From Naegleria gruberi (taxonomy: Eukaryota), in assembly GCA_000004985.1 (NCBI GenBank), contig GG738879.1: a stretch of 64,000 nt of DNA. One strand, given 5' to 3'. This document shows positions 102-44,658 of this stretch, one piece after another. Both the position numbers and the translations under genes were made by a program. The notes under the pieces are model-generated. The model had not been told where the DNA came from and made no database searches. It saw only the letters and a program-made list of their open reading frames with translations. Every line of letters begins with the position of its first letter. The stretch's first letter is position 1.

Positions 102-3100
102 ATGAATGAGTTAAAAACAATGACAACTGAGAAGATTGATAAGGAACCTGAATATGTTTTTAATATGAAGGAAGCATCAGATAAAAAGTCAACAATAGTA
201 GATCAAAAGAAAGTTTGCCTCTGTACAAAATTAAGAGTATGCTATTACTATGAAGAAGGAGGAGTCACTCCAGAGGATGAGAGTAGATCTCCCAATTTAA
301 TGAGAAGTAACGATGATAACGTGCGAAGCAATTCTGAGCCATCACCAGTACATGGTGTCGAGTTGCATTTTGATAGATTTGTAGATGGTGCAGTTGTATA
401 TGGACCTTGGGGAGACCACCAGAGAGCATTGCTTCAAGCTTTCTTCTTCCCTCCTCTCTATGAGAATGCAAAGTACTATAGAAAAACAGCAGGACGACAA
501 AGAAAATCTGAAAAATTTGATGTTGAGTTCTATTTTAATGAAAAGACAACTTGGGTATTCCCTTTTATTGCAACACCAAAAACTTTAAGAGAAAAAAAAG
601 AAAATAAGGGCGACGAACAAATTTTGACAATGATTTTTGACAAGAATTCCTTCCTTCACTGGAGTGGTGATATGTATGCTTCTTTAGCAACTAATGAAAC
701 AATTACCAATATTGATTTCAATTTCCCAGGAATGAGTCTAATTACAAGCAATACGCAAGCCACCTTTGGTGAATCAGAGATAGGAAAAGGCCACTTCATT
801 ATGAGAAACTCTGCTGAATGGAATGGCAGAAAGGACTGGACTTTCAATTTTGAAGCAAACAAGTCTACAGTTTATTACACGGCAGGTAAGTTATCAATAT
901 ATTTTCTAATTCTAAAATCATTTATAGAACACATTGGATTCATTATGGATTTAATTAGGGATTGGAGAAATTATCCAAACCAAAAACAAGCAACTTTACT
1001 CGATTTTATTCCCTCTGTATATACATATAATTTTAAACTTTATAACTCAATGCTTAAGATGCATACTAACGACTTGAACATAGTGGAGTTTCCTAATGAC
1101 AGCTCCAAGAATCACTTTTTCTGTATTGATTACCCTCTAATGAGTATCAGTTTTACTGCTCCTGGAGAAGTTTTTTCCCCACCTTCTGTAGAATATTCAT
1201 TCAGTGTAGAGGTTAAGGGTGATGCACAAGTTGACCCTGGAGTACATATGGAATACCCAAAAGATCATCCTGTTCACGAAATGCAAATGGAACCAGGAAA
1301 AAAGTTTTTATGGGGCGAAAGAGCTCATGTACATGGAACCTATACAGTCCATGACAAAATCAATGTCGAAAATGTGGATTCCTGCATAATTAATGTTGAT
1401 TTATTCAATGTAAATTTAATGGTGAACGGATATCACCTCAATTATTTAATTACTATGTGGTTTGACCATTTCACTGCTGAAAGATTTTGGATGTCAGAAT
1501 CTGAATACATTGCAAATGGATATAAGAATGACAAGTCAAAGCAAATATCCAATTTACAATCCACTGATTTGTCGTCCATTCCTTATCCATCTAACCCAAC
1601 CGAATACTTTGTTACCATTAATATCAAACGAGGTATAGTACATTTGCCTCACTCTCTTTATTCGAGAGAAGAATGTACACAACTTATGGGTGAAGAATTT
1701 ACTATGGATATTAGATACGTACCTTCCAGTATTGATTTGTGTTTCAATCTTGGTCAACTTATGGCTGAAATACCAATTAACCCAGATGAAAAAGTAAGGC
1801 CTTCAAAGAAGTTTATTGGTTGTGAAGGAATCAAATTTTTAGCACAATTACCAATTGGACCAAATCCTGATGGGTTACTTTGGAGAAGAAAAATTCACTT
1901 TGATATTGGAGCAATAACTGGTGAAATCACTCCAAGTCAAATTGGTAATATTGTAAATATTGGTCTCAATTTTGTCTATCAGTGGAAATTGGCCTACTTC
2001 CCTAAACCTGACATTACTTTTAAAAAAAGTGATTATTCCAGAAGACAATATTCTTCTGAAGAGTTTGATGAATACTTGATTTGGGATGTTAGAGTAACCT
2101 TTGTTTCTATTTCTGCTGTCATTTCAATGACCAACGGTATGGTCAATATCGATTTAGACAAGGGAATTGATATTAATTTTGATTCACTCAATAATGGATC
2201 ATCCAATTCTAGGCTCAATGTATTGGTACCCTCCATACATGCCAGAATAATGAATGCAAGAGAAACAGGAATGAAAGTAGATGGTGATTGGGTTCAAATT
2301 GGAGAACTATTGTCTGGTCTTAAAGTTGGTATGGAAAAGAAAACTCACGACCTTAAAGAGCACTATTTCAGACAACAAAGGTTCATTCAAAATATGAACG
2401 GAGATTCGTTTGGATTGAATTTTAGTGCTGATAAACAAATGGAAACATCTCTTAACAAACGAGAGATGGAGACAAGTGCTTCAACAAGCAAGAAAAGGTC
2501 CAAAAAAAAGAATCCTTCAAAGAGATCTGTTGCTAAGACTACAACTGAAATTAGTGAAACAGATATTAGCGAAACAGACACAGATGCTGAATTTTTCGAT
2601 ATAGATGATGACGAATTGGAGCTGGAAGAGGAAGAAGAGAAGGTTCAAAAGGTCAGAAAAGTGTTTAATGGTCTAACTTTTCATGATACCGAACTGGGTA
2701 AAACAATTAGTGTAGACTATATTGATAGTATAATTTCAGAAGATGGAAGCCAATTTATAGAAAAGGATGTATTGGACGATAGAGCACAATGGAATCTTAT
2801 TTCGAAATCATCACCAAGTTTATCTACATATTCCAGTTATTTGAAAAATTATTACTATGAACAAGAAAGAGAAAGTCTTATGCCTTTAACATATAATGCT
2901 AAGCAATTTCTTACAGATAGATATCCTCACCATAGAATGGGAATGTACTCTCCTTTCCCTGAATATCACTTAAGAAGAAATAAGAATACTGAAGATTCAA
3001 ATGAGTTACTACCAATAGTATCAAAATTCAGCAAACTTGACATGAAAGATTTTAGAGGACAATTCTATTCATTTTCTTCTGGAAAGGACCGTGAGAATAT

Positions 3101-6100
3101 TGAGAGAATTTTGCAAATCGAAAGTAACTTTACCTCCCAAGAAAAAATTGATCAACAACATATCAACATTGAATTTTTAAAGAATATTGATATTAGCTTT
3201 TCACCAAATGTAATCTCTCTAGTACACCAATTAATCAAATATATAATACTTCCAGATTCAAACCTTCATGCTACAGCTGATCATATCGAAAAGTCAAAGA
3301 AAGTATTCCATCAGGATGTCCCAGAGGAATTATTAGAAGAGAAGAAAACTATTCCAAAATGGGATTTAAAGAAAATTATCTTTTCTGGTGGTGTTAAATG
3401 TGTTAATGTTAACGTTTTACAATCACTCTCTGTACCTAATATTATACCTGAGTCACCTTTACAAGGAACAGTTTCTGCATATTCTATCAAACTTTTTGCT
3501 ACTGATTTTGTAGCTTCTGGATCTGTAACTTTGAGAAAAGTGGAAGAGGAAAAGAAAGTAAGCTCTGAACTATTTTCTATTGAAGGTTTTGGAAAATGTC
3601 TAGAGGTTGGAGGTATTTCTCAGTGCTTAGATAGTAAAACATACCATTACAAAGGTATTGATCCTTCTGAGTTACCACTTTACTTCTTACAAAGGGTAAA
3701 TCTAATACCAGACGCACCAATAGTTGCAGCAATTCTTGTAGAGGACGTTCATTTCCAAGGTAAAAATAATATCAAGGAGGAAAACTCTCAGGGAAGATTT
3801 ACCTGTACAGTAGGAAAGCAAGGTTCTCTAGGATCAGGTGTTTCTGTACTCTTTACTCATGATATAATTGTAATTTCATATTCACTTGTAGAAGTGTGGA
3901 GAAAAGTTATCACAGATATGGTATTGAATGTTAGAAACTATTTGAGGTTACGACACGTCTATGATTTGCTACTACTTAGTCAAGTTTCAAAGAAAGCTGT
4001 ATCCAATACATCAGAAAACCTCTATGGAGTCTTGGAAAAAAAGCAAGCTTTGAAACATTTAAGAGCTTCTCTCTACTCTTTAACTTTTGCTGACTGTAGA
4101 AGTATTCAAAAGTTTATGCATTCTCATATAGGAATGGAAGTTGATTCAAAGGTAGAAATGAGAGCAATAAGAAATGAATACTCTGAATTGATAGAAGACG
4201 AAGACCATGCCCCTCAAATTCATACAAGCAAAACCTCTGTGAGATTGAGAACTGATATCTCTTTCCACTTGGAACGACTTGACCTTTCAGTTCATTCTGT
4301 TGATTTTAAAACAAAAGTTTACACAAAGAGTATTGCAAAGTTTAATGATATTTTAATGAGAGGAAAAGTAGAACATAGTTTGAATCCACTTTTCGAAACT
4401 GAGTACAAGAAATTTGAATCAGAAAATGCACAAAAGATAAGAGATATTTCTCTTATTTTATCAGTGAATTGTAGAGCCTTTAGTATTGATATTCACTCTC
4501 AAACTCTCATCCTTTTAACTTCAGCGCTTGGAGTATTCTTAATTGTTAAAAACAAACCTTTCATTAAAAAGTTGAGAGAAAAAGAAAAAAAGAACAAAAA
4601 CAAAAATCCTCAACAAAACCACGGAGAAATTAAGGAGATAACACACGATGTTTCTGCATCAACCCATGAACCAGAGGGTGAAAAAGAAATACCAGTGTAC
4701 CAAGAAAAAGTAGTCCTAAAACTGAATGTATTTACAAATGTTAATGTACAAAAAGCAACCGCTAGAGCATGGATGGACAAGAATAGTTTTGCAGAACTCA
4801 GTATTGATAAGTTTTCTCTACTCTTCAATCAACCTAAAAGCTCAGAAGAGCACATGCTAGCCATCAATAATGAGGAAAACAAGTCAGAGAAGAAGAGTAA
4901 TCTTAAAATGGTACATAGTAGTAATATTTCCATTAACAAAATTCTATTCCAGTTCAATTATACAACTCCTGAAAAAACAAACGAGAGAACAAAAGAGTTT
5001 ATTTCTCTCTTTGATGTTACTGTGAATGATATTAGACTTAATGAATTTTTATTCAAAGAAAAGGACTTGAATGTGCATGCCTATTTTGCATTTGATAAGC
5101 TTTTAATTAATCTTCCATTTGCTGATGTTTGGTCTGCATCTTCAGTACAATTTAGGCTGTTTGTGAAAACATGGTATGAAGCTATCAAAAGAAAGCCTAA
5201 TTTACCAAGCTTTGACATTTCAAAAGATTCTTCTCAACCAAAACAAGACCAAGAGCAACCCAAATCACCTATTAATTTCAATATTCCTGCAATTAATATT
5301 GTTCTTGATTTGAATGATATTTCTGCATACTTCAAGTTGGTAGATTCTTTCCAAATGAGATATAGTCTCACGAAACTAACAGCTCACTTCAAGCAAAATT
5401 CAAAACTTGACAATAACTTTATGGTACACTTGTTCCCGCATTCGTTTACTTTGAAATCAAAGAATGATGAAGAATTTCCAAACTCCAACAAGTGGGAAGG
5501 TCCAAGAAGCACAACACTTGGTTCGAATGAATTCAGAAAGATTTTCATTCTTCCTGAAGTTATTGTTTCTGGAAGTTTAGAAAATAAGGACAATAATGGT
5601 ACTACACAGAGAATACTTTCCACTTTAATAGCTATTGATTACTTTGAAAATGTGGTTACAAGTGATTTGTTAAATCATGTTATTGTCATTCAATCCGCTG
5701 TTACAAAAGAGATTAACAAGATCATTGAAAGCTTGAATAAGGGTGTTGAAGATTTAGAAAAAATCAAAAACGAATTACCAAAAGCTAAAAAGAATGTCAG
5801 ATCTCTCAATCTTTTCTTTGATGTAAAGCTTTTGTTTGAAGGAATTAGAATCACAGCTCTTGGACCATCTACAGCTCTGGTTGTTGACTCTGGATCAGTT
5901 AATGTTACAGCTTCCAACATTGAACATGTACGAGTCAAGATGTCACTCAAAGGTCTAAATATTAATATGGTAGACACCCACAACATCAAATGGGCAAGTA
6001 CAAGAAAGTACAACAATAGATATTCTGAAACAAGTGAGTGTTACCAGTGGGCCCAATTCCAATCAAACCTTCAAGTTCAAAACTTCCTGGATACTAAATT

Positions 6101-15299: not shown

Positions 15300-17616
15300 A
15301 TGCAAACAGTGCATAAACTCAAGTCAATCAAACAATTACGAGAGAATCAACCCTACAGTGGTTTACTATTGGAATGTATTCCCAATCCTGTAATTTTTGA
15401 ATACTATGAGGAGTTTGGAAAATATGAAATGGTATTGGAGATTTTAAATAGATCTGCAATACCTACAGCAATCCGACAAAAATCAAATTCTTCCAAATAT
15501 TTCAAAGTGAGAAGAGTGGATGCTAGTGAGGGTAAAATTGCTCCAGGATTATCAGCCAAATTCTTAGTATCTTTTTTCCCTGATTCACTTCTGGATTTTA
15601 CTGATGAAATAACATTTATCAGTGCATCCAAAGATGAAGTAGTTTTACCACTTCTAGGGAGAAGGAAAAGACCTTTACTTACCCTTCCGAGAATAATTAA
15701 TCTAGGTTATTGTTTAACAGGAACTGAAATTAGCAAGCAAATAGTGTGTAAAAATCAAGGAGGAAAAGGAAAATTTATATTTCAACAAGAATACTCGGAT
15801 CAAACAAACATCAAATTCCTTTTCTCAACACAAAATGAATTTGAGAAGGATATGGAAATTGTGGAAAAAGCACCATTTTTCGTTTCCCCAAAGTATTTCA
15901 GCCTTAATGAAGAAGAAGAGGCGCTCGTGACAGTTACCTTTAGACCAGAAGTAGTAGGGGAACAAAGCCAATCAATATTTATTATATTTGACAATGAGCA
16001 GGTATTTGAAATTCAATTAGTAGCTGAGGCTCAATATCCTAGGATTAATCTTTGCTCAATGGCAAAGAGAAAAGACTTCTTACCAGAAAGAGATTCAACT
16101 CTATTGTGTTTTGAAACAGTCTATCCATATCAAAAATCAGAATCCCAATTACTTACTCATTACAATAGCAGTGATGTGTCAGTTGAATTCGAGTGGAGAT
16201 ATATCAATGAATACGCTGACACTCCAATCTCATCGAATGGGATTAATCTTCCTTTCATGGTTAAACCAAGTATTGGAAAGATTAAACCAAGAAGTTGTAT
16301 GGCATTTGAAGTTACATTTACCCCTCAGTCATTGGGAGTATTCTCGGGATACTTCATTCTGTTTGTAAATAATGTACCTTTGCCGGTTTCCTCTGACCAC
16401 CCTTATTTTTATTACTTTAAATCGGGATTTTCATGGTTTAGAGACAGTATTCTAAATTCTCTAAAGACCTCTGATCCTCTCAGATACTTTACCCCTTACA
16501 GCTCTGAGGTTGCTGAAATTGAGAATGAATCAAAAGCAATTGCCTTAGGAGAGTCAAACTTGGTTAGTTTTGGTTCTGTACCAGTGTTTCATTGTAGACT
16601 ATTTGGTGACACAAAGAAATTGGAGGTAACTCTAAATCCACCAATTATCAATTTGAGCAATAGTATTTTTATTGGGGAAATTGTGGAAAAACAAGTGGTG
16701 ATTGTGAATAGTTCTGATTTTGATGCTTATTTTAGATGGCTTGTTTGTGAGGAGGATGATGGTCTAAAGACAGAATTTGATCCTCCTAGTGGAGTTATAG
16801 GGCCAAAAGAAAGAGTTCCAATTAAGATTTTCATTTCATGTTCAAAGCCTCAAGCATTCAACCTTTCTTGCATTTGTGAAATTGCAAACTCCGAAGAAAT
16901 AGAGCTACTGTTAAGAGGAGAAAGCAAGCCTCAGACTTTAAGAATTGACACACCATGTCTAGATATGGGGATAATTGAAACTGGAAAAGTTGTTACCGAT
17001 TGTGTGCAGATAACAAACACTTCTTCCTTAGATTTAAATTGGGCTTGTTCAACAATAGAGAATAATGCTGTCACAGTTATTCCATTCGAGGGATGCTTGC
17101 CAATAGGTAAAAGTTGTCTTGTAAACGTAAGAGTTAAGTCAGCTTATCCTCAATTCATTCAACAAATATTACGATTCGATGTTGAAAATGGAATTTCTCA
17201 ATATGTTGGTCTTAACGCCGAAATCCAATCACCTCAAGTGGTATTGGAGGAATATTTCTTTAATGTTGGAGAAATAACAATTGGCGAGTAAGTATTTATT
17301 GTTTTTGTTTGTTACTCACAACATTTTCAGTGTTGTCACAAGAACTATTAGAATGAAAAGCGTTTCTAGCATTAGTACTGAATTCTGCTGGTATGATCTC
17401 AAATTAATAGAAGACAGACCATACGAAATAGAATTCATAAATGAGAAAGGAAAATTGCAATTGGGAGAGGAAGCCGAAACAATTATAGAAATAAGAGCAA
17501 TTGCAAAAGCAGCATTATTCGAAGAACTTTTCCCATGTTTTCTTCAAGATAGCAAAGATAATTATTTTGGAATCAAGATAGTAGGAAGTATAAAGGAAGA
17601 AAATACACTAGATTAG
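15300..17616 (+). CDS. ASH/MSP-fold repeat protein resembling the N-terminus of hydin/CFAP221 (ciliary central-pair type); 2 exons (15300..17287, 17331..17616)
   Basis: N-terminal pattern YxxFxxYEMxLxIxN...YFKV...GKIAPG...F...FxP...LDF...F closely follows the hydin N-terminal ASH domain. A 43-nt GTAAGT...TTTTCAG intron joins the 663-aa ORF to the 17281..17616 ORF in frame. Product about 767 aa. Confidence 0.55.
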
Positions 17617-36252: not shown

Positions 36253-37653
36253 ATGATTTTTAAAATGTTTATGCGTGCGGAAACAATACTGGAGTCTTCC
36301 GAAGACTTTCAAGTCGATGAAATTGGTTATACATATGATAGGATTATTCTAGGAATTATGACATCACTTGTTTGTCTTTATATTTTATTACAGATTGGTC
36401 TTACTTTCTACCACAAGCACAAAGTACCATCATTCCATTTCGGTTTTTTGGTGCTGTGTTGCATTTGGATGATTTTGAGGACAGTTTATTATTTTTCTGT
36501 TATTGAAAATTGTGGTGTTTTCTTCTTGTACTACCTTCCTATTTGTGTAGAATTTGCAGTGTTTACTTTACTAGTAGTTTTCTTCTTCAAATTATTAAAT
36601 TATGGAGGAGGTTGGGATAAATCAATTTTCTCCCGTTCTCATAACAATTCAACACCTTCTAACAGTATTTTAGTAGGTTCTGGTGTTCAATCTCCTCCGG
36701 AGAGAAGAAGATCTTCCAGGAATAGAATCAATGATAGTTATGGTGCTGTTTCTAATCACCATCACGTCTCTGTAAATGCTGCTTCAGAGGATGATGACAC
36801 AAAATCTGATGCTTCTTTTGTGAGTCAAAATTTAGAAGATGTTATTTACGAAGAAGACTCTAAGTCAAGTTACTATAAGACATCAACAGGTGCCAAGTAT
36901 TACAAGAAACTTCTTAAATCTATCTGTACAAAAAAGGTGATTTATATGGTAACATGGTTGATTTCCAATTTTGTATTTTTGGCAATAATCTTATCTTTCT
37001 GTATTACTTCATGTACTACTGCAATAGAAATAGAGCAAACTAATTCTATTATTGGATTTGCAAGTGCTTGCTCATTCACTATTTTGATGATTATGTTATT
37101 AATTATTGGTATTAGAATGGTTTACATATTTAGAAGAAGAAATGATATTCCTGTGAGCTTAAAAGTCAGTAGAATTACTGGACCAGGAATGATTGTCGTC
37201 ATTATTGTGAACTGTTTTGTATTCACCAGTAGAGCTATATTTGATTGTTTGATTTTAATTCCTAATTTCCCAAAAGATTATTTGAAAATTCAATTCTTAA
37301 GATCTACTGATTATGGAAGAATCTTTATTATTGTTACTAATTTCTTCTGGGAAATTATGCCAATTCTGAGTATTTTAATATTCTTTAGCAAATTCAGTTT
37401 CGGTAGAAATGTTGTGAATATGAGCTTCAAAAGACAAGTTCAACCAGAGGACGAAACTCCAGAATCAGAATCAACAAATGTTGATCATGTTTTTGATCCT
37501 AACACTCCTTTGGTTATTGGTACAAACAATAACAGAAATGGAATGTCCAAAAGAAATGCGAGTTCAGGGTATTTAATTCAGGAGGGAGAAACAACAGAAT
37601 CATCTCTTTATGATGATATTGAAACAGATAGCTCTTACAGTGCAAACGATTAA
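36253..37653 (+). CDS. Seven-transmembrane protein with long loop between TM3 and TM4 (GPCR-like/TOM1-DUF1084-like topology)
   Basis: 466 aa, seven hydrophobic helices by eye; family not assigned. Confidence 0.5.
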   Translation: MIFKMFMRAETILESSEDFQVDEIGYTYDRIILGIMTSLVCLYILLQIGLTFYHKHKVPSFHFGFLVLCCIWMILRTVYYFSVIENCGVFFLYYLPICVEFAVFTLLVVFFFKLLNYGGGWDKSIFSRSHNNSTPSNSILVGSGVQSPPERRRSSRNRINDSYGAVSNHHHVSVNAASEDDDTKSDASFVSQNLEDVIYEEDSKSSYYKTSTGAKYYKKLLKSICTKKVIYMVTWLISNFVFLAIILSFCITSCTTAIEIEQTNSIIGFASACSFTILMIMLLIIGIRMVYIFRRRNDIPVSLKVSRITGPGMIVVIIVNCFVFTSRAIFDCLILIPNFPKDYLKIQFLRSTDYGRIFIIVTNFFWEIMPILSILIFFSKFSFGRNVVNMSFKRQVQPEDETPESESTNVDHVFDPNTPLVIGTNNNRNGMSKRNASSGYLIQEGETTESSLYDDIETDSSYSAND

Positions 37654-37654
37654 T

Positions 37655-38737
37655 TTATTTGAATAGTTTAGAAAAAGTGTGCTTTTCCTTCTCCTTATAC
37701 TTTTCCAATTCAGCTTTTGCTTTCTTGTGCCAAACCTCAATTTCCTTATTTCCTAAATTATTTTCAAGCAAGTCTGAAAAATCCCTCTCACTATTTTGCC
37801 AATCTCCTCTTGAAAAGTATGAAACACCTCTTCTAAACTTGGCCTTTGTCTCAATTGCACTGATACCTTCCATCTCATTATGATGGGTAACTAGTTGAAG
37901 AACTTTGTTGCACAATTCTATAACTGTTGCATATTCTGATTGTTTGATTTTAACTGCTGCAATATTTCCCAAAATAACAATCTCTTTTTCTTCCAATAAT
38001 TTTCTTTCATTTTCTTCTCTCATACCAGGCGCCAAATATCTAAATGCTTTCTCATATTTTTCTAATGCTTTTGAAAGATTTCCTTGCTTGAAAAATTGAT
38101 TTCCTAGTTCTTTCAATTGTTCTGCAATTTCCATCTTTTTCCCAAGAGAAACATCTTCATTATCTGCTGGGTATTGAGGATAAATATCTCCTTCCTCAAC
38201 ATTTTGTTGGTCTAGTATTCCATCACTCTGACCATGTTCAAGAACTCCACAATCCATAAAGGTAATTTCAATACTTGGATAACCAGTTGTTTCAACGACA
38301 GGAATTCTTTCAATTCTACTAAGTATGGAAGTTCCTTTAGTTATTTTTCCAACAGGTAACAATTCATTCTTCATGTAAGAAAGGTTTGTTGTAGAAAACA
38401 AGAATTGTGACGATGCTTCTTTTGTTGATTTCTTATCAATGAACATAAGGAAATCCTCGTCACGTTCACTATCATAATAGTCATTTGCAAAATCCCCATC
38501 CACAACTTGTTTTCCTCCTTCTCCAGTGTTGAATTCATAATCACCAGCCTGAATCATCATCTTTTTAATTACTCTAAAAACTTTACTTCCTTTGTAGCCT
38601 ACTGGTCCTTTGCATAGAGTAATTATATTATTACAAATATTTGGGCATTTGTCTCTGAATAATTCTACTACAATTCGCCCTAATGAATTTCCTTTTACCT
38701 CAACTTCGAAAAAAACTCTATCAATATCCTGGCTCAT
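37655..38737 (-). CDS. Cyclophilin-40-type peptidyl-prolyl isomerase (divergent cyclophilin domain + C-terminal TPR)
   Basis: VFFEVEVKGNSLGRIVVELF...VFRVIKKMMIQAGDYEF cyclophilin-like core with insertions; TPR region AEQLKELGNQFFKQGNLSKALEKYEKAFRYL and K/E-rich tail as in Cyp40/PPID. Stop is 1 nt from the stop of the upstream convergent gene. Confidence 0.7.
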   Translation of the reverse strand: MSQDIDRVFFEVEVKGNSLGRIVVELFRDKCPNICNNIITLCKGPVGYKGSKVFRVIKKMMIQAGDYEFNTGEGGKQVVDGDFANDYYDSERDEDFLMFIDKKSTKEASSQFLFSTTNLSYMKNELLPVGKITKGTSILSRIERIPVVETTGYPSIEITFMDCGVLEHGQSDGILDQQNVEEGDIYPQYPADNEDVSLGKKMEIAEQLKELGNQFFKQGNLSKALEKYEKAFRYLAPGMREENERKLLEEKEIVILGNIAAVKIKQSEYATVIELCNKVLQLVTHHNEMEGISAIETKAKFRRGVSYFSRGDWQNSERDFSDLLENNLGNKEIEVWHKKAKAELEKYKEKEKHTFSKLFK

Positions 38738-39444
38738 GGTTTGTTGTATTTTTGTTTGTATTTTTATTTAGGGTTTACAAATTTCGAAAGTAATTGATCT
38801 TGAATACAAAACCAACTGTTTTGGCCTGGAAGCTTCTCAACATTTTCAATTTATTTCCTTAAGAAACTAGATTTTTCGAAAAATCATGGAATCTTCGGAA
38901 TTTCTCTAATAACTCAAGTTGACAAAGCATGTCTCCCTTATTTGAATTTTCTCGATGTATTGAACTTTGAAGAAAATGATCCAAGCAAATCATTCTTCTC
39001 TCTTGTGAAGATATCATCGTGAGTACAGGGAAGATTGGTTAGTTGAAGGCCTCTTCGTCGAAAGAGGAGTTTGTACATGTGATGGTTTGTTGGGTTTCTT
39101 TTTTCTATGTTTCTTCTTTTTGGTGCTTTTCACTTCATTTAATTCAGGTAAAAATTGAGAAACTGGTGAGGGACTCTGATTGGTGTCAGAAAGAATTATT
39201 TAAATTGTAAACTTACTCTTTGAGGACCATCTTCTTCTGGTTGTGACAATTCTCCCTTATCCCCTTTTTTTATATCTGAAAGATAAGGAAGGCCTACCAA
39301 TCCTCTTGCTTTCAGACTTGTGATATCTGGAAGAATTTCATGATGAACTTCTTGAGGTGGTTCTACTTCTTCTTTTCTCGTGTGTTTCTTCATTGTTTTA
39401 GCGAATCTGATTTCACAAATGTTACCAAAGTAATTAAAACCAAC

Positions 39445-40597
39445 TTACTTCTCTTCATCAATGTAGACAACAGAACCTTTTCTTTCTGTTTTTTCCTTCC
39501 TTGGTTTTTTCCATGAATTAAGAGAAATATTGTCTTGATCTAATAGTTGTTGGAAGTCAGTATTGTACCATTCTGAATATCCCTTTAAGTATGGGTGTTC
39601 CAATAAATCCTCATATGTACCTCTCTTGTTTGGATCAATGTTGAGACAAAATTTGATGAAAGAAAGAGCTTCTTTGGAAATATTTGTTTTGTATCTACTA
39701 TCTAAGGAAACTATTCCCTCTGAAGATGGTTTTGGTAGATCTACATCTCTATACATTGGGTTATTATTGTACACTTCAATTTGTCTCTCTGACAATTTTC
39801 CAAAGCAATTAATAATTCTTGAAAGCTGATCAATATCAGAATCTCCAGGGAATAATGGTTGTCCTTCCAATAATTCCCATAACATGCATCCAATAGCCCA
39901 TATATCTACAGCTTTTCCATATTCTCTATCACCTACAACTAATTCAGGAGCTCTATACCATCTCGTTGACACATAATCGGTATACTTTGCACCAGTTCCC
40001 TCCAATGCTCTGGCAAATCCAAAATCTGCTATTTTCATGACTCCACTTTTCGATACCAACAGATTTTCTGGTTTCAAATCTCTATGGATAATCTAAGCCC
40101 TTATTACAATAACAAAGCCGAGATGAACTTACATTCAAAGAATGACAATACTCGATGCCTTTCAACAGTTGGAATAAATATTTCTTAGTCATATCTTCAT
40201 CAAGACCGTAAGGATATTTTTCCTCTAGTTTCCCTAGAATGGTAGACTCCAAAAACTCGAACACAAGATACAGTTTTCCCTTTTTCCGAAAAACCTCCAA
40301 CAAATTCACTATGTTTTCATGTCTTAATTGCTGCAAAATTCCTATTAACCTGTCGATGATGATTACGTACCTTTAGGATTCTAATCTCTCTTAGTGCCGT
40401 TTTTTTGACTTGTTCATCTTCATCAGATTCCTTAAACTTCTTAACGGCGACTACTTGACCTGTTTCCTTATGCCTACATTTCATAACAACACCATAGGCT
40501 CTAATCATGCCGATCAAGCAACAATTAATAAGAACAAAGACCGCCACAAACAAACATACCCTTCACCAATGATTCCAAGGTTCTCGTAGTTTTCCAT
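39445..40597 (-). CDS. Cyclin-dependent kinase-like (CDKL family) Ser/Thr kinase; exons complement(39449..40092, 40133..40330, 40371..40500, 40560..40597) with possible further 3' exons down to about 38940
   Basis: Joined product [35 protein letters not shown]...[23 protein letters not shown]...[14 protein letters not shown]...DFGFAR...[11 protein letters not shown] matches CDKL1-5. Introns 59, 40 and 40 nt (GTATGT, GTACGT, GTAAGT). The stop after ...IDEEK is the TAA inside GAGAAG|TAAGT. Confidence 0.8.
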
Positions 40598-40767
40598 TTT
40601 TTTTTTGGTGTTGTATCCTATCAACCGTTGTAGCCGAATGTTTTTCCTCTTTGTTTTCCAGGGTTATTTTAGTGATCTAAAGATAATAATTTCAAAAATA
40701 TTGTGGTATGATGGGGGCAATCAGTATAAGGCCGCCAAAAAATTGATGATTTAAGGATTTTGAAAAA

Positions 40768-41965
40768 ATGCAAACAACCTCCTCGAGCGAAAACTCTTTC
40801 TTGGCTGATCATACAACACTATCATACAATGATTCTTCAATAGTATCGGAATCATCAAGTGCTATTTTGTCAAGTTTATTCATGTTGGCAATTTCGTTAG
40901 GAGTTTATTCCTTATCACAAAGAACCACTTCTACAAAAACTAGTAAAAAATCGAAAAAGTTAAAAGAGGAACAAGGCAATCAGGAAATAGATCAAAGATT
41001 TAAACAAAGTAAGAAACCAACAAAGGAGGAAAAGAAAATAGCCAGAGAACTCTACAAAAATAGAAAACCAAAATCAATTGACCAAGTTTTGTGTCAGAAA
41101 AAAATGGATTTAATCAAAAACAAACAAAAATCACTATCATATGGAAAAGAATTGGCTTCATGTCTAGGTGAAAGAAGATTTATTAATCAAAAGAAATGGA
41201 ACTGCTTATCCAGACCACAATACAAGTATTCTTGTGGAATTAGCTCACTAACATCTGTTTGGAATTTTCTCTTCTCATCATTAGGCGAGGGAAGTTTACC
41301 ACCACTCACTCAAGAAGAAGTTCTTTTAATACTTGGATTTAGTGAACCATTCGAACAAATAAGGTTTGTAGTCAAATAGATACAATTAGACTCACAGTTC
41401 AAGGTTTGGACCCTTTACTGGAAATCAAACATTAATGACATGGTTTAAAGAGCTCCTGGCAGCTTTTAACTGTAAAGGATCCTGTTCTATATTTTGGAAA
41501 TGTGCAGGAGAGTCTGTGGCAATACCAACCAATGCAAAAGAGGAGATGAAGAGTGGTATTAAAGATACGAAGGTTGCTTTTATTTATCATTGCTACAACC
41601 ATTACATGGTACCAATCGGATATGAAGAAAGTTCTGAAATGCAATCCCAAATTTATGAAAAGGATATTGAAAAAACAAATACATGGTTTTTAATTGGAGA
41701 TAATAGTAGGCTGCAAGAACCAGTTGAATGTGTTAAATTTTCAGATATTGAAAAGGATTTAAAACAGGAAGGACCTAAATTTTTCAATATTAGACATCCA
41801 GAAAGAGGAATTCAGAAAAAAGAAGGAGGAAAATCACGTGGTAATGTAGATTGTATTCTCAAGTTCACATGTGATTCCACACAAGTAAATATTAGACCTG
41901 AAAAGAGAACAAATTTTGACAAAACAAGGAAACAATCCTTTGAGCTTGTGTGGGCTGAAAAGTAA
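40768..41965 (+). CDS. Membrane-anchored protein with putative papain-like (C39/ACTMAP-like) Cys-His fold; 2 exons (40768..41363, 41398..41965)
   Basis: A 34-nt GTTTGT...CACAG intron joins track ORFs 40768.. and 41435.. in frame. Candidate catalytic Cys in [15 protein letters not shown] and His in [10 protein letters not shown]; assignment tentative. Confidence 0.4.
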
Positions 41966-42169
41966 GCCAAAAAATGTGGATCGAAACGAAAAAAAAAGCC
42001 GCAATGTTGCCCTGAAATAATAAAATCAATCCACACCTGGAAAAAATATTTTATTAAAAAAATAGACATACAATTAACGGATAGTTTAGCCACTTTCCAG
42101 TCATGTTTTTGGAATTTGCTTTACTTTACTTTCCTCAATATTATTTATTATTAAGACTCACTAATTGTT

Positions 42170-44658
42170 ATGTCCAATAACGCAAATACTCCCAGGAAAC
42201 ATCGCTTTTCCTTTTCACTTTCTCCTTCCTCAAACAAGCCTAACATCTCTCCTTCATTCTTATCTTACAGACAACCTGAAACAATATCAACTGCTTCATC
42301 TAGAAACAATTTATCTAACACTGTTCCACTATGTGATAGGTATGTTTTTCATCAAAGTCATTACCATTGTTAATCTTTTTTTCAATGTTGTTTTTGTTTA
42401 ACGTCCGTTATTTTTCATCATACAATTTTAAATATTATTTAATTTTAAATAACATTATTCGTGATGAACGGTAACATAGATTCATCTCTAATAGAAGCTC
42501 CTCTAACTTGCGGTTTGGTCTCTCCTCTCCCACAAACCATTACTCACCACAAACACAACAATCATCATTGCAACTGCTCTTTGATGTGTCTGATCAGAGT
42601 TATCGCCACTCTGTAACAGACTCCTCCATTAGAACAAGCCTTACTCCCTCCATATTTGATGGTAGTAATGTACAAGATAATAGAATTTCCCATCTCCCAC
42701 TCAATCGTCCAAGATCAGCCCCACTTGTGAATAACTCTTCAACCACTACACAAACAACACAACAAACTTCTCCTGAGGTAAGCCTTAGAAGAAGAAGAAG
42801 CCAAAGTTTAAATTCGTCATCAAATACATCCACCACCATTGTTGATTCCTCTCTTTCCTACAATACTGTATCCTTGCATCAACATAGAACGTACACTACA
42901 CCGAGCAGAACTTTAAGCAGAGCTGGTTCTGGTTATTCATCTCCTAGAGGCACAACAACTAGTAACAGCAGTACACAATTAAGTATTGGGTCGCTTTCAG
43001 AATCGGGAAGAAGTAACTCACTGAATAATAGTTCGAACTCTTTGAGCTCAATCAATTCCATACTTAATGATGGCTCTTTTGATGATTCAATATTCAACTC
43101 TAATGGGTTAAGCAATGATTATGATCCTAATTTGAGAAATTCTGGGCAATCTGATAACTTGACATTTATTGATGATTTTTTGACCTCTACTCATTCCCAC
43201 ACAACCCTTTTTGATGAAGAACAAGAAAATTCAAATACATGTGAGGATACAATACCTCCGTCACGGGTACCTAATAGTTTTAACTTGGATGGAGTTCTTG
43301 TTGGAGGAAAGGGAGATGCATTTGATACTCTTTTAATGTCAGAGCTACTACCTAATAGTCAACCAATTAATAATCACCTAACAGTTTCTGAAACACCTAA
43401 CCCTGTATCTTATAATAGACGCACTCGAAGCTCTAACTCGTCACCTGTAAAAAGAATTAATACTAACAGCACACCTAACTCTAACATTTTGAACTTTAGC
43501 CCACATAACAAAACATCAAACAGTGTGGTAATAAGTAGGCGGCAGACATATAACAGTAATAAGGGAACCCCTGAACCTGCATTCAGTATGCTTATTCATC
43601 CAAATAACACAGTCCTTACGAAAAATGGAATTAATCTGAAAACTAACAAAAAGATTGCTCTTCCAAAATCTAACAGAACAATACCAGAAAAACCAATTAG
43701 AGTTCTGGATGCTCCTGGTCTCAAAAATGATTTTTATTTGAATCTTTTAGATTGGGGAGAGTCAGACCTTTTGGCAGTAGTTTTAAATACTAACGTTTTC
43801 CTTTGGAATGCTAATAACCATTCTGTATCCTCTCTTTTGACCACACCAGAAAATAACACAATAACGTCAGTATCTTGGATGAAAACAGATCCATACGTTT
43901 TGGCAACAGGTAATGAGGAAGGATTTGTTTCAATTTATGATGTGCAAAAAGAGAAAAAAATTAGAGATGTACATAGACACACTGACAGAGTAGGAAGACT
44001 TGTATGGAATGGGTATTCTTTAACATCTGGATCTAGGGATAATCAAATTATTATAAGTGATATTAGAAGCAAAAAGTCAATAATTCAGCTTTCTGGTCAC
44101 TCCCAAGAAATTTGTGGATTGAAATGGAATAATACTGGAAAACAATTAGCCAGTGGCGGGAATGATAATAATCTATTTGTATGGGAGCCTCAGCATAATA
44201 ATAGATATCCAATGTGGAAATTTAATGATGGTCATAATTCTGCTATCAAGGCTCTTTCATGGTCTCCGTATGATAGTAATATATTAGTATCAGGAGGAGG
44301 AGTGAGTGATAGATGTTTAAAGTTTTGGGATACTTCTAATGGCCAAGTACTGAGTACAAAAAAGACCAGTAGTCAAATTTGCAATATTTATTGGTCGAAA
44401 TTTACAAATGAGATTGTAACAACACACGGGTTAATGAGTCAAAATCACATAACGATATGGAGTTCCTATCCGGAACTTAATCCAGTTTCTACTCTCTATG
44501 GACATACTGAGCGAGTGTTATACTTAACAGCTTCTCCTGATGGTTCTCAGATTGTAACAGGTTCTGGTGATGAAACTATTCGATTCTGGTCCATTTTCCC
44601 AAGTAAGGAAAAACAAAACCAAGATATTCTTTCCAGAGTATCCCTAAACATTCGATAA
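42170..44658 (+). CDS. APC/C activator of the Cdh1/Fizzy-related (FZR) type; 2 exons (42170..42339, 42480..44658)
   Basis: The C-box DRFISNR is created by splicing a 140-nt GTATGT...ACATAG intron. Seven-blade WD40 domain close to human FZR1 (PIRVLDAPGLKNDFYLNLLDW...DETIRFWSIF) and a C-terminal IR tail (LNIR). About 420-aa S/T/N-rich N-terminal region. Confidence 0.8.

Follow-up and report, generated by a model that had tools for sequence, protein, structure and literature searches.

A stop codon within a consensus splice donor of a Naegleria gruberi CDKL-family kinase gene: evidence for an ordinary intron followed by a conserved tail

In a 64,000-nucleotide (nt) stretch of Naegleria gruberi DNA (contig GG738879.1, assembly GCA_000004985.1; G+C 31.8%), called the window in the following, a gene apparently coding for a protein kinase of the CDKL family is found on the minus strand. 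Its kinase frame runs into a TAA, which is at the same time part of a GTAAGT resembling a splice donor. Does the protein end there, is the stop kept in some transcripts and spliced out of others, or is it just a piece of an intron? A previous sequence-only reading had favored the second answer, proposing a short isoform ending at EEK and a long one, carrying a basic C-terminal extension, as described for vertebrate CDKL5.

The overlap itself is borne out by the minus strand, where positions 39456..39440 read GAAGAGAAGTAAGTTGG, in kinase frame GAG AAG TAA: the TAA occupies 39447-39445, and the GTAAGT 39448-39443. The boundary must be shifted by one base, from the proposed GAGAAG/TAAGT to GAGAA/GTAAGT, the G of the GT being the third base of a Lys codon. 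Counted from the donor, the first AG in the usable range comes after 42 nt, at 39407, and splicing rebuilds the split codon as AA+A, still coding for Lys. In this CDKL-family gene of six exons and five introns, the interval 39448-39407 is very probably the fourth intron, of the U2 type (GT-AG) and constitutive.

When five GT..AG intervals are removed, the ATG at 40597 opens a single open reading frame (ORF) of 453 codons. The features of the gene, in the order of transcription, are the following, where (-) indicates the minus strand.

40560..40597 (-): exon 1, with the ATG at 40597-40595; aligns with the N terminus of N. lovaniensis XP_044543087
40501..40559 (-): intron 1, 59 nt, GTATGT...TAG, phase 2; same position as intron 1 of N. 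lovaniensis
40371..40500 (-): exon 2, with the KKTALRE motif of helix alpha-C
40331..40370 (-): intron 2, 40 nt, GTACGT...CAG, phase 0
40133..40330 (-): exon 3, recognized by translation and by alignment to the N. lovaniensis protein
40093..40132 (-): intron 3, 40 nt, GTAAGT...TAG, phase 0
39449..40092 (-): exon 4, with the catalytic loop, the TDY activation-loop motif, the C-lobe, a predicted helix (residues 294-317) and the start of the predicted disordered tail; ends with ...VVYIDEE and the AA of the Lys codon
39407..39448 (-): intron 4, 42 nt, GTAAGTTGG...GGTAAC...AATCAG, phase 2
39445..39447 (-): in-frame TAA, bases 2-4 of the donor GTAAGT, read only when intron 4 is unspliced
39217..39406 (-): exon 5, (K)FAKTMKKHTRKEEVEPPQEVHHEILPDITSLKARGLVGLPYLSDIKKGDKGELSQPEEDGPQR, with conserved LPDI and LPYL motifs
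39176..39216 (-): intron 5, 41 nt, GTAAGT...CTGAC...AATCAG, phase 0; read-through gives VSLQFK and a stop
39023..39175 (-): exon 6, first reading frame, SPSPVSQFLPELNEVKSTKKKKHRKKKPNKPSHVQTPLSTKRPSTNQSSLY, with the QFLPEL motif and a basic cluster
39019..39022 (-): frame break in exon 6, TCAC; relatives lack bases here, and the frame continues as +1
38938..39018 (-): exon 6, +1 frame, DDIFTREKNDLLGSFSSKFNTSRKFK and TAA (38940-38938), corresponding to the conserved C-terminus of the orthologues
38850..38855 (-): first AATAAA past the gene, about 83 nt beyond the TAA at 38940-38938

Removal of intron 4 adds 63 open codons to exon 4, followed by 53 more past intron 5. The two protein-like segments, noticed downstream in the sequence-only reading, are indeed compatible in frame: a single open frame results from cutting out 39448-39407 and 39216-39176. 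That they are exons of the kinase gene is the common indication of the orthologue models, of the conserved intron positions and of a nonsynonymous divergence much lower than the synonymous one. The kinase protein thus appears to run past ...IDEEK into a predicted disordered tail.

The kinase domain is complete (residues 4-291; Pfam PF00069, E = 6e-80, with profile positions 1-263 fully covered). CDKL kinases are characterized by a MAPK-like T-x-Y in the activation loop and by a KKxAxRE-type motif in helix alpha-C: both are present in the translation, as TDY and KKTALRE. In a protein search with the window kinase, the named database matches are overwhelmingly CDKL or CMGC/CDKL. The best matches of solved structure are the kinase domains of human CDKL2, CDKL1, CDKL5 and CDKL3 (PDB 4aaa, 4agu, 4bgq and 3zdu), scoring 380, 331, 314 and 313 bits, respectively, versus 245 for the best CDK2. 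Judging from these scores, the gene codes for a CDKL-family kinase of the CMGC group, closer to CDKL2 than to CDKL5.

Alignment to the human structures stops around residue 308-325. An AlphaFold model, built on a 73-sequence alignment, is confident for the kinase core, except for about residues 150-170, and confidence holds up to about residue 317; beyond about residue 330, values of the predicted local distance difference test (pLDDT) are mostly below 50. Such values speak against a folded tail domain and leave no room for a docking hypothesis; they are consistent with a disordered region, bearing linear motifs.

Relatives were gathered by an exhaustive profile search with the tail only, followed by contig and cluster look-ups, and include N. 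fowleri, Willaertia magna and a locus from GCA_037189345. Loci are indicated in the following as L001 (N. lovaniensis), L004 and L005 (N. fowleri), L006 (W. magna) and L007 (GCA_037189345); one further protein match, P0002, derives from the Logan contigs L002 and L003. In the exhaustive HMMER search, the tail profile matched heterolobosean relatives only, and no alignment to CDKL tails outside Heterolobosea was obtained. The same profile had zero matches in a word-indexed protein database, a search which missed even its own source sequences.

The closest orthologues described are those of N. lovaniensis (XP_044543087.1, C9374_011578) and N. fowleri (XP_044556498.1, FDP41_010005; CAG4713258.1), 81-83% identical over the full length; for the spliced window protein against XP_044543087, identity is 81% over 100% of the length. 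Both species share the five intron positions, including the phase-2 AA/GTAAGT donor with its embedded TAA, as well as the tail motifs, the basic cluster and the neighboring CDC20/Fizzy and cyclophilin-TPR genes. They differ from the window in exon 5, which is 18 nt shorter, and in exon 6, which is read in a single frame to a TAG stop, while the window shows the +1 break. In the W. magna orthologue (KAL9658429.1), an intron interrupts the same Lys codon in the same phase, and LPDI, LPYL, SQFLP.L, a basic cluster and a terminal ...KKF..K are present; the intron donor, in contrast, is GTATGT, and hence does not embed a stop.

Intron 4 is therefore found at the identical phase-2 Lys codon in four species, with the following lengths and donors.

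Window: 42 nt, remainder 0 on division by three, donor GTAAGT
N. lovaniensis: 50 nt, remainder 2, donor GTAAGT
N. fowleri: 59 nt, remainder 2, donor GTAAGT
W. magna: 43 nt, remainder 1, donor GTATGT

Only one of the four lengths is divisible by three; in the other three species, the conserved downstream frame can be reached from the kinase frame by splicing only. Two independent annotations of the N. fowleri gene (FDP41_010005 and CAG4713258), though discordant elsewhere, both splice intron 4. In two relatives of greater distance, L002/L003 and L007, intron 4 is absent, and kinase and tail form one uninterrupted ORF, an observation independent of any gene-model inference.

The gene models of the relatives show some peculiarities of their own. 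KAL9658429.1 (L006 4001-5989) looks chimeric: it starts in the kinase C-lobe and is fused into the downstream cyclophilin-TPR gene, splicing intron 4 correctly but skipping exon 6. A conventional exon 6 (SQFLPTL...KKFTLK, then a stop) may be read in W. magna after a 38-nt GTAAGT..TAG intron. In N. fowleri (L004 about 2908-3321 and 4190-4270), FDP41_010005 retains intron 2 as an in-frame insertion of 17 residues, VGDGKVWKCINMYYLMK, while in CAG4713258 six residues (SQSPTQ) are missing past intron 5, apparently through use of a downstream acceptor.

Conservation of the downstream ORF in relatives, which the sequence-only reading had proposed to check, is found across six species. The proportions of differing nonsynonymous (pN) and synonymous (pS) sites were determined for the window against N. 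lovaniensis and N. fowleri. For the tail (133 alignable codons), pN is 0.23-0.25 and pS 0.77-0.78; exon 5 gives 0.25-0.26 and 0.63-0.66, and the first frame of exon 6 gives 0.21-0.25 and about 1. In the linker, just upstream of intron 4, pN is 0.22. Synonymous sites are saturated in both comparisons, indicating that the two species are fairly distant from that of the window. The substitution pattern shows that the tail is under purifying selection.

In the six-species alignment, the invariant or nearly invariant features of the tail are LP[DN]I, PY[LF], Q(F/S)..P.L...K and a basic (Lys/Arg) cluster. All the invariant tail residues are located downstream of the embedded TAA, and the split Lys itself is invariant. 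The long form is thus the conserved product; orthologues are already annotated in this way. The main value of the finding is the correction of the gene model, together with the description of tail motifs common to Naegleria, Willaertia and two further relatives. These motifs and the basic cluster may be taken as modest leads on the localization and regulation of CDKL kinases in amoeboflagellates.

What, then, is the meaning of a stop within the donor? In a phase-2 intron with a donor starting with GTAA, the unspliced frame necessarily reads xxG TAA: the overlap is a by-product of intron phase and consensus donor. The same configuration, GAA GG/G TAA GTG, is found in intron 1 of the N. lovaniensis gene. 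Two phase-2 GTAAGT candidate introns elsewhere in the window, at 17288-17330 (+; 43 nt) and 22752-22709 (-; 44 nt), likewise meet an immediate TAA on read-through. With GTATGT donors, as in W. magna intron 4 and window intron 1, the embedded stop is absent, and read-through of the W. magna intron proceeds for 8 codons before a stop. That termination and splicing exclude each other at this donor, as the sequence-only reading remarked, is trivially true; its use of the overlap to argue for a design with two isoforms finds no support, the overlap being automatic, absent in W. magna and followed by unconserved intron sequence. For scans based on sequence only, the lesson is one of caution: a stop overlapping a GTAAGT marks an intron, not alternative isoforms.

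Intron 4 is also typical of its surroundings. A crude scan of the window, whose candidate set is not validated, yields introns whose lengths cluster at 38-46 nt; their donors are GTAAGT or GTATGT, and their acceptors YAG. Intron 4 has the full-consensus GTAAGT, 42 nt, a TAAC 17 nt upstream of the AG and a CAG acceptor. The GTAAGT hexamer occurs 41 times in the window, versus 25 expected, an enrichment only modest and of little weight: the case is built on frame continuity and conservation.

The events at this locus may be pictured as follows. Intron 4 interrupts the Lys codon after its second base, and the stop would normally be removed with the intron, in a splicing step likely to be efficient and constitutive in vivo, given a donor of consensus sequence and a typical length (42 nt). 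The mature mRNA would then encode the kinase domain (4-291), the predicted helix (294-317) and the predicted disordered tail, mostly contributed by exons 5 and 6. As written, this tail has about 135 residues; should the exon 6 break be an error, it would have about 160. The tail would act through linear motifs, and its basic cluster is possibly a nuclear localization signal. An mRNA retaining the intron would be a minor by-product, and a probable target of nonsense-mediated decay (NMD), since the TAA is followed, about 230 nt further on, by intron 5.

Some points weigh against this explanation. The window species is the only one in which the length of intron 4 is divisible by three. Because of its +1 break, exon 6 leaves the tail not intact as written, and the C-terminus could be decaying in this lineage. 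The orthologue gene models are predictions, although neither the pN and pS values nor the uninterrupted ORFs of L002 and L007 rely on them. Finally, the evidence for splicing comes from genomic sequence and orthologue comparison.

The alternative that survives best, although unlikely, is that retention of intron 4 is regulated, and gives rise, beside the long form, to a shorter functional isoform with about 337 residues (...IDEEK), in the manner of CDKL5_107. The kinase domain would be complete in such a form, which would also include the predicted helix at 294-317. Intron retention is the commonest type of alternative splicing in non-animal eukaryotes and has been detected in N. gruberi (PMC6142364). 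In all of the four species having intron 4, moreover, a stop is found at the donor or just after it. Yet this stop follows automatically from phase 2 and GTAA and recurs at unrelated introns, while the W. magna donor, GTATGT, contains none, and its read-through adds 8 unrelated residues. Retention could not produce the short form in the two relatives without intron 4 (L002/L003 and L007).

The sequence of the intron speaks against regulation as well. When the five window introns are compared with those of N. lovaniensis, identity is 54-60%, with indels; at 58%, intron 4 is unremarkable and no better conserved than the others, and the comparison revealed no conserved sequence in it beyond the splice sites. 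Regulated introns are generally expected to show weak or unusual splice signals. None of these is found at intron 4, whose full-consensus donor and typical length are features of efficiently removed introns. An mRNA retaining it would keep intron 5 past the stop, probably the usual NMD configuration. No AATAAA or ATTAAA is found near 39445: up to 38856, exon 6 holds the only hexamer of this type (ATTAAA, from 39143), and an AATAAA first occurs past exon 6, at 38855-38850. This placement weakly favors an end after exon 6, as the poly(A) signal of the organism may differ.

Short introns introducing a premature stop on retention are a known type, and in Paramecium and other eukaryotes such stops are selected so that unspliced mRNAs meet NMD. 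The window intron likewise truncates the unspliced product, and its length is a multiple of three. Low-level transcripts retaining intron 4 may well exist, as intron retention is seen in Naegleria transcriptomes (PMC6142364). Of the two isoforms originally proposed, the longer one, with its basic C-terminal extension, is retained, while the short form ending at EEK finds no specific support. A literature search on CDKL isoforms in Naegleria returned nothing relevant.

The analogy with vertebrate CDKL5 holds in part. CDKL5_107, documented as the major brain isoform in vertebrates, retains intron 18 (PMC3385648), and is thus a real precedent, within the CDKL family, of a gene gaining an alternative C-terminus by leaving a stop-bearing intron unspliced. 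The N. gruberi kinase, however, is closer to CDKL2 and its tail gave no alignment with CDKL tails outside Heterolobosea; the sequence of the window intron is unconserved, and neither intron nor tail is homologous to those of CDKL5.

Further downstream, in exon 6, the frame is broken. After ...NQSSLY, ending at 39023, the sequence TCAC (39022-39019) is found, and the frame as written adds Ser and Arg before a TGA at 39016-39014. The +1 frame, DDIFTREKNDLLGSFSSKFNTSRKFK up to the TAA at 38940-38938, matches instead the C-terminus conserved in N. lovaniensis, N. fowleri and W. magna: its pN is 0.22 and its pS 0.61-0.65, and the peptide REKNDLLGSFS is identical in N. fowleri. The tail had been drawn by the sequence-only reading to about 38940. 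A conserved C-terminus is indeed found there, but may be reached only through a +1 change at 39022-39019, as the literal frame stops at the TGA.

The break is most likely explained by a one-base assembly error or by a very recent mutation. Repair by splicing was considered and rejected: the acceptor at 39174 leads to stops, and the other workable GT..AG pairs delete conserved residues. Read-through of the TGA was rejected as well, the continuation of that frame having no homology and soon meeting further stops.

Two other accounts of the break appear very improbable. According to the first, the tail is being lost: the break would be real, the C-terminal 26 residues would no longer be made and the gene would be drifting toward a shorter form. 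The literal frame does stop at the TGA, before the conserved terminal peptide. The +1 frame peptide, however, is still constrained, with the pN and pS reported above, so that any loss would have to be very recent, and a single-base assembly error explains the break equally well. The Ser-Arg-TGA ending, moreover, looks non-native, because no long ORF ends with TGA and CGA is rare. Among 21 ORFs of at least 250 codons in the window, 17 end with TAA, 4 with TAG and none with TGA, although some of these ends may be due to intron read-through rather than being true termini; Arg codons are AGA in 77% of cases and CGA in only 5%. Loss of the tail would in any case concern the last 26 residues only, with no bearing on intron 4.

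According to the second account, for which the chances are just as slim, programmed +1 ribosomal frameshifting would take place at UCA-CGA-U (UAC UCA C/GAU GAU), where a rare CGA is followed by a UGA in the 0 frame. If so, the product would be ...SSLYS-DDIFTREKNDLL..., matching the orthologues.

The last alternative, that the gene ends at EEK-TAA, the ORF from ATG 39393 being non-coding or a small gene of its own, is scarcely credible: an ATG-initiated ORF of 65 codons (39393-39196) does appear in a mechanical ORF list, but its ATG is not conserved, its last six codons are read-through of intron 5, the exon 5 segment is contiguous with the kinase in the intron-free relatives and joined to it in every annotated orthologue, and conservation carries on over the intron 5 splice into exon 6. 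This ORF had been listed in the sequence-only reading as one of the downstream segments. It does contain a coding part of exon 5, although its final VSLQFK belongs to intron 5; its ATG is not a start, relatives carrying I/L-K-T-K-K at that position.

As to the surroundings of the kinase gene, its neighbors in the window are a CDC20/Fizzy WD40 gene (42508-44658, +) and a cyclophilin-TPR gene (37655-38737, -). Gene order is conserved over 36253-44658 in comparison with N. lovaniensis (L001) and N. fowleri (L004). Between the CDC20/Fizzy and CDKL genes, ORFs at 40768-41965 (+) occupy the slot of a gene annotated as BIVM in the relatives; beyond the cyclophilin-TPR gene, a 466-aa ORF (36253-37653, +) is found where the relatives carry a GPR137-like gene. 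Neither the ORFs at 40768-41965 nor that at 36253-37653 had a match in the copy of Pfam searched.

The cyclophilin-TPR gene is a single ORF of 360 codons in the window (37655-38737, -), while the products called in N. lovaniensis (L001 about 5046-5963) and N. fowleri (L004 4824-5744) have 305-306 residues. In these two species, a GTATGT just after ...NSG/NTG resembles an intron near the 5' end; the contrast could be due to intron gain or loss, or to a difference between gene models.

In L003 (1463-2236, -; also in L002; 32% G+C), an ORF of 257 codons, opposite in strand, has its end only about 8 nt away from the stop of the intron-less kinase gene: with so little space between the two stops, the genes are tightly packed and convergent.

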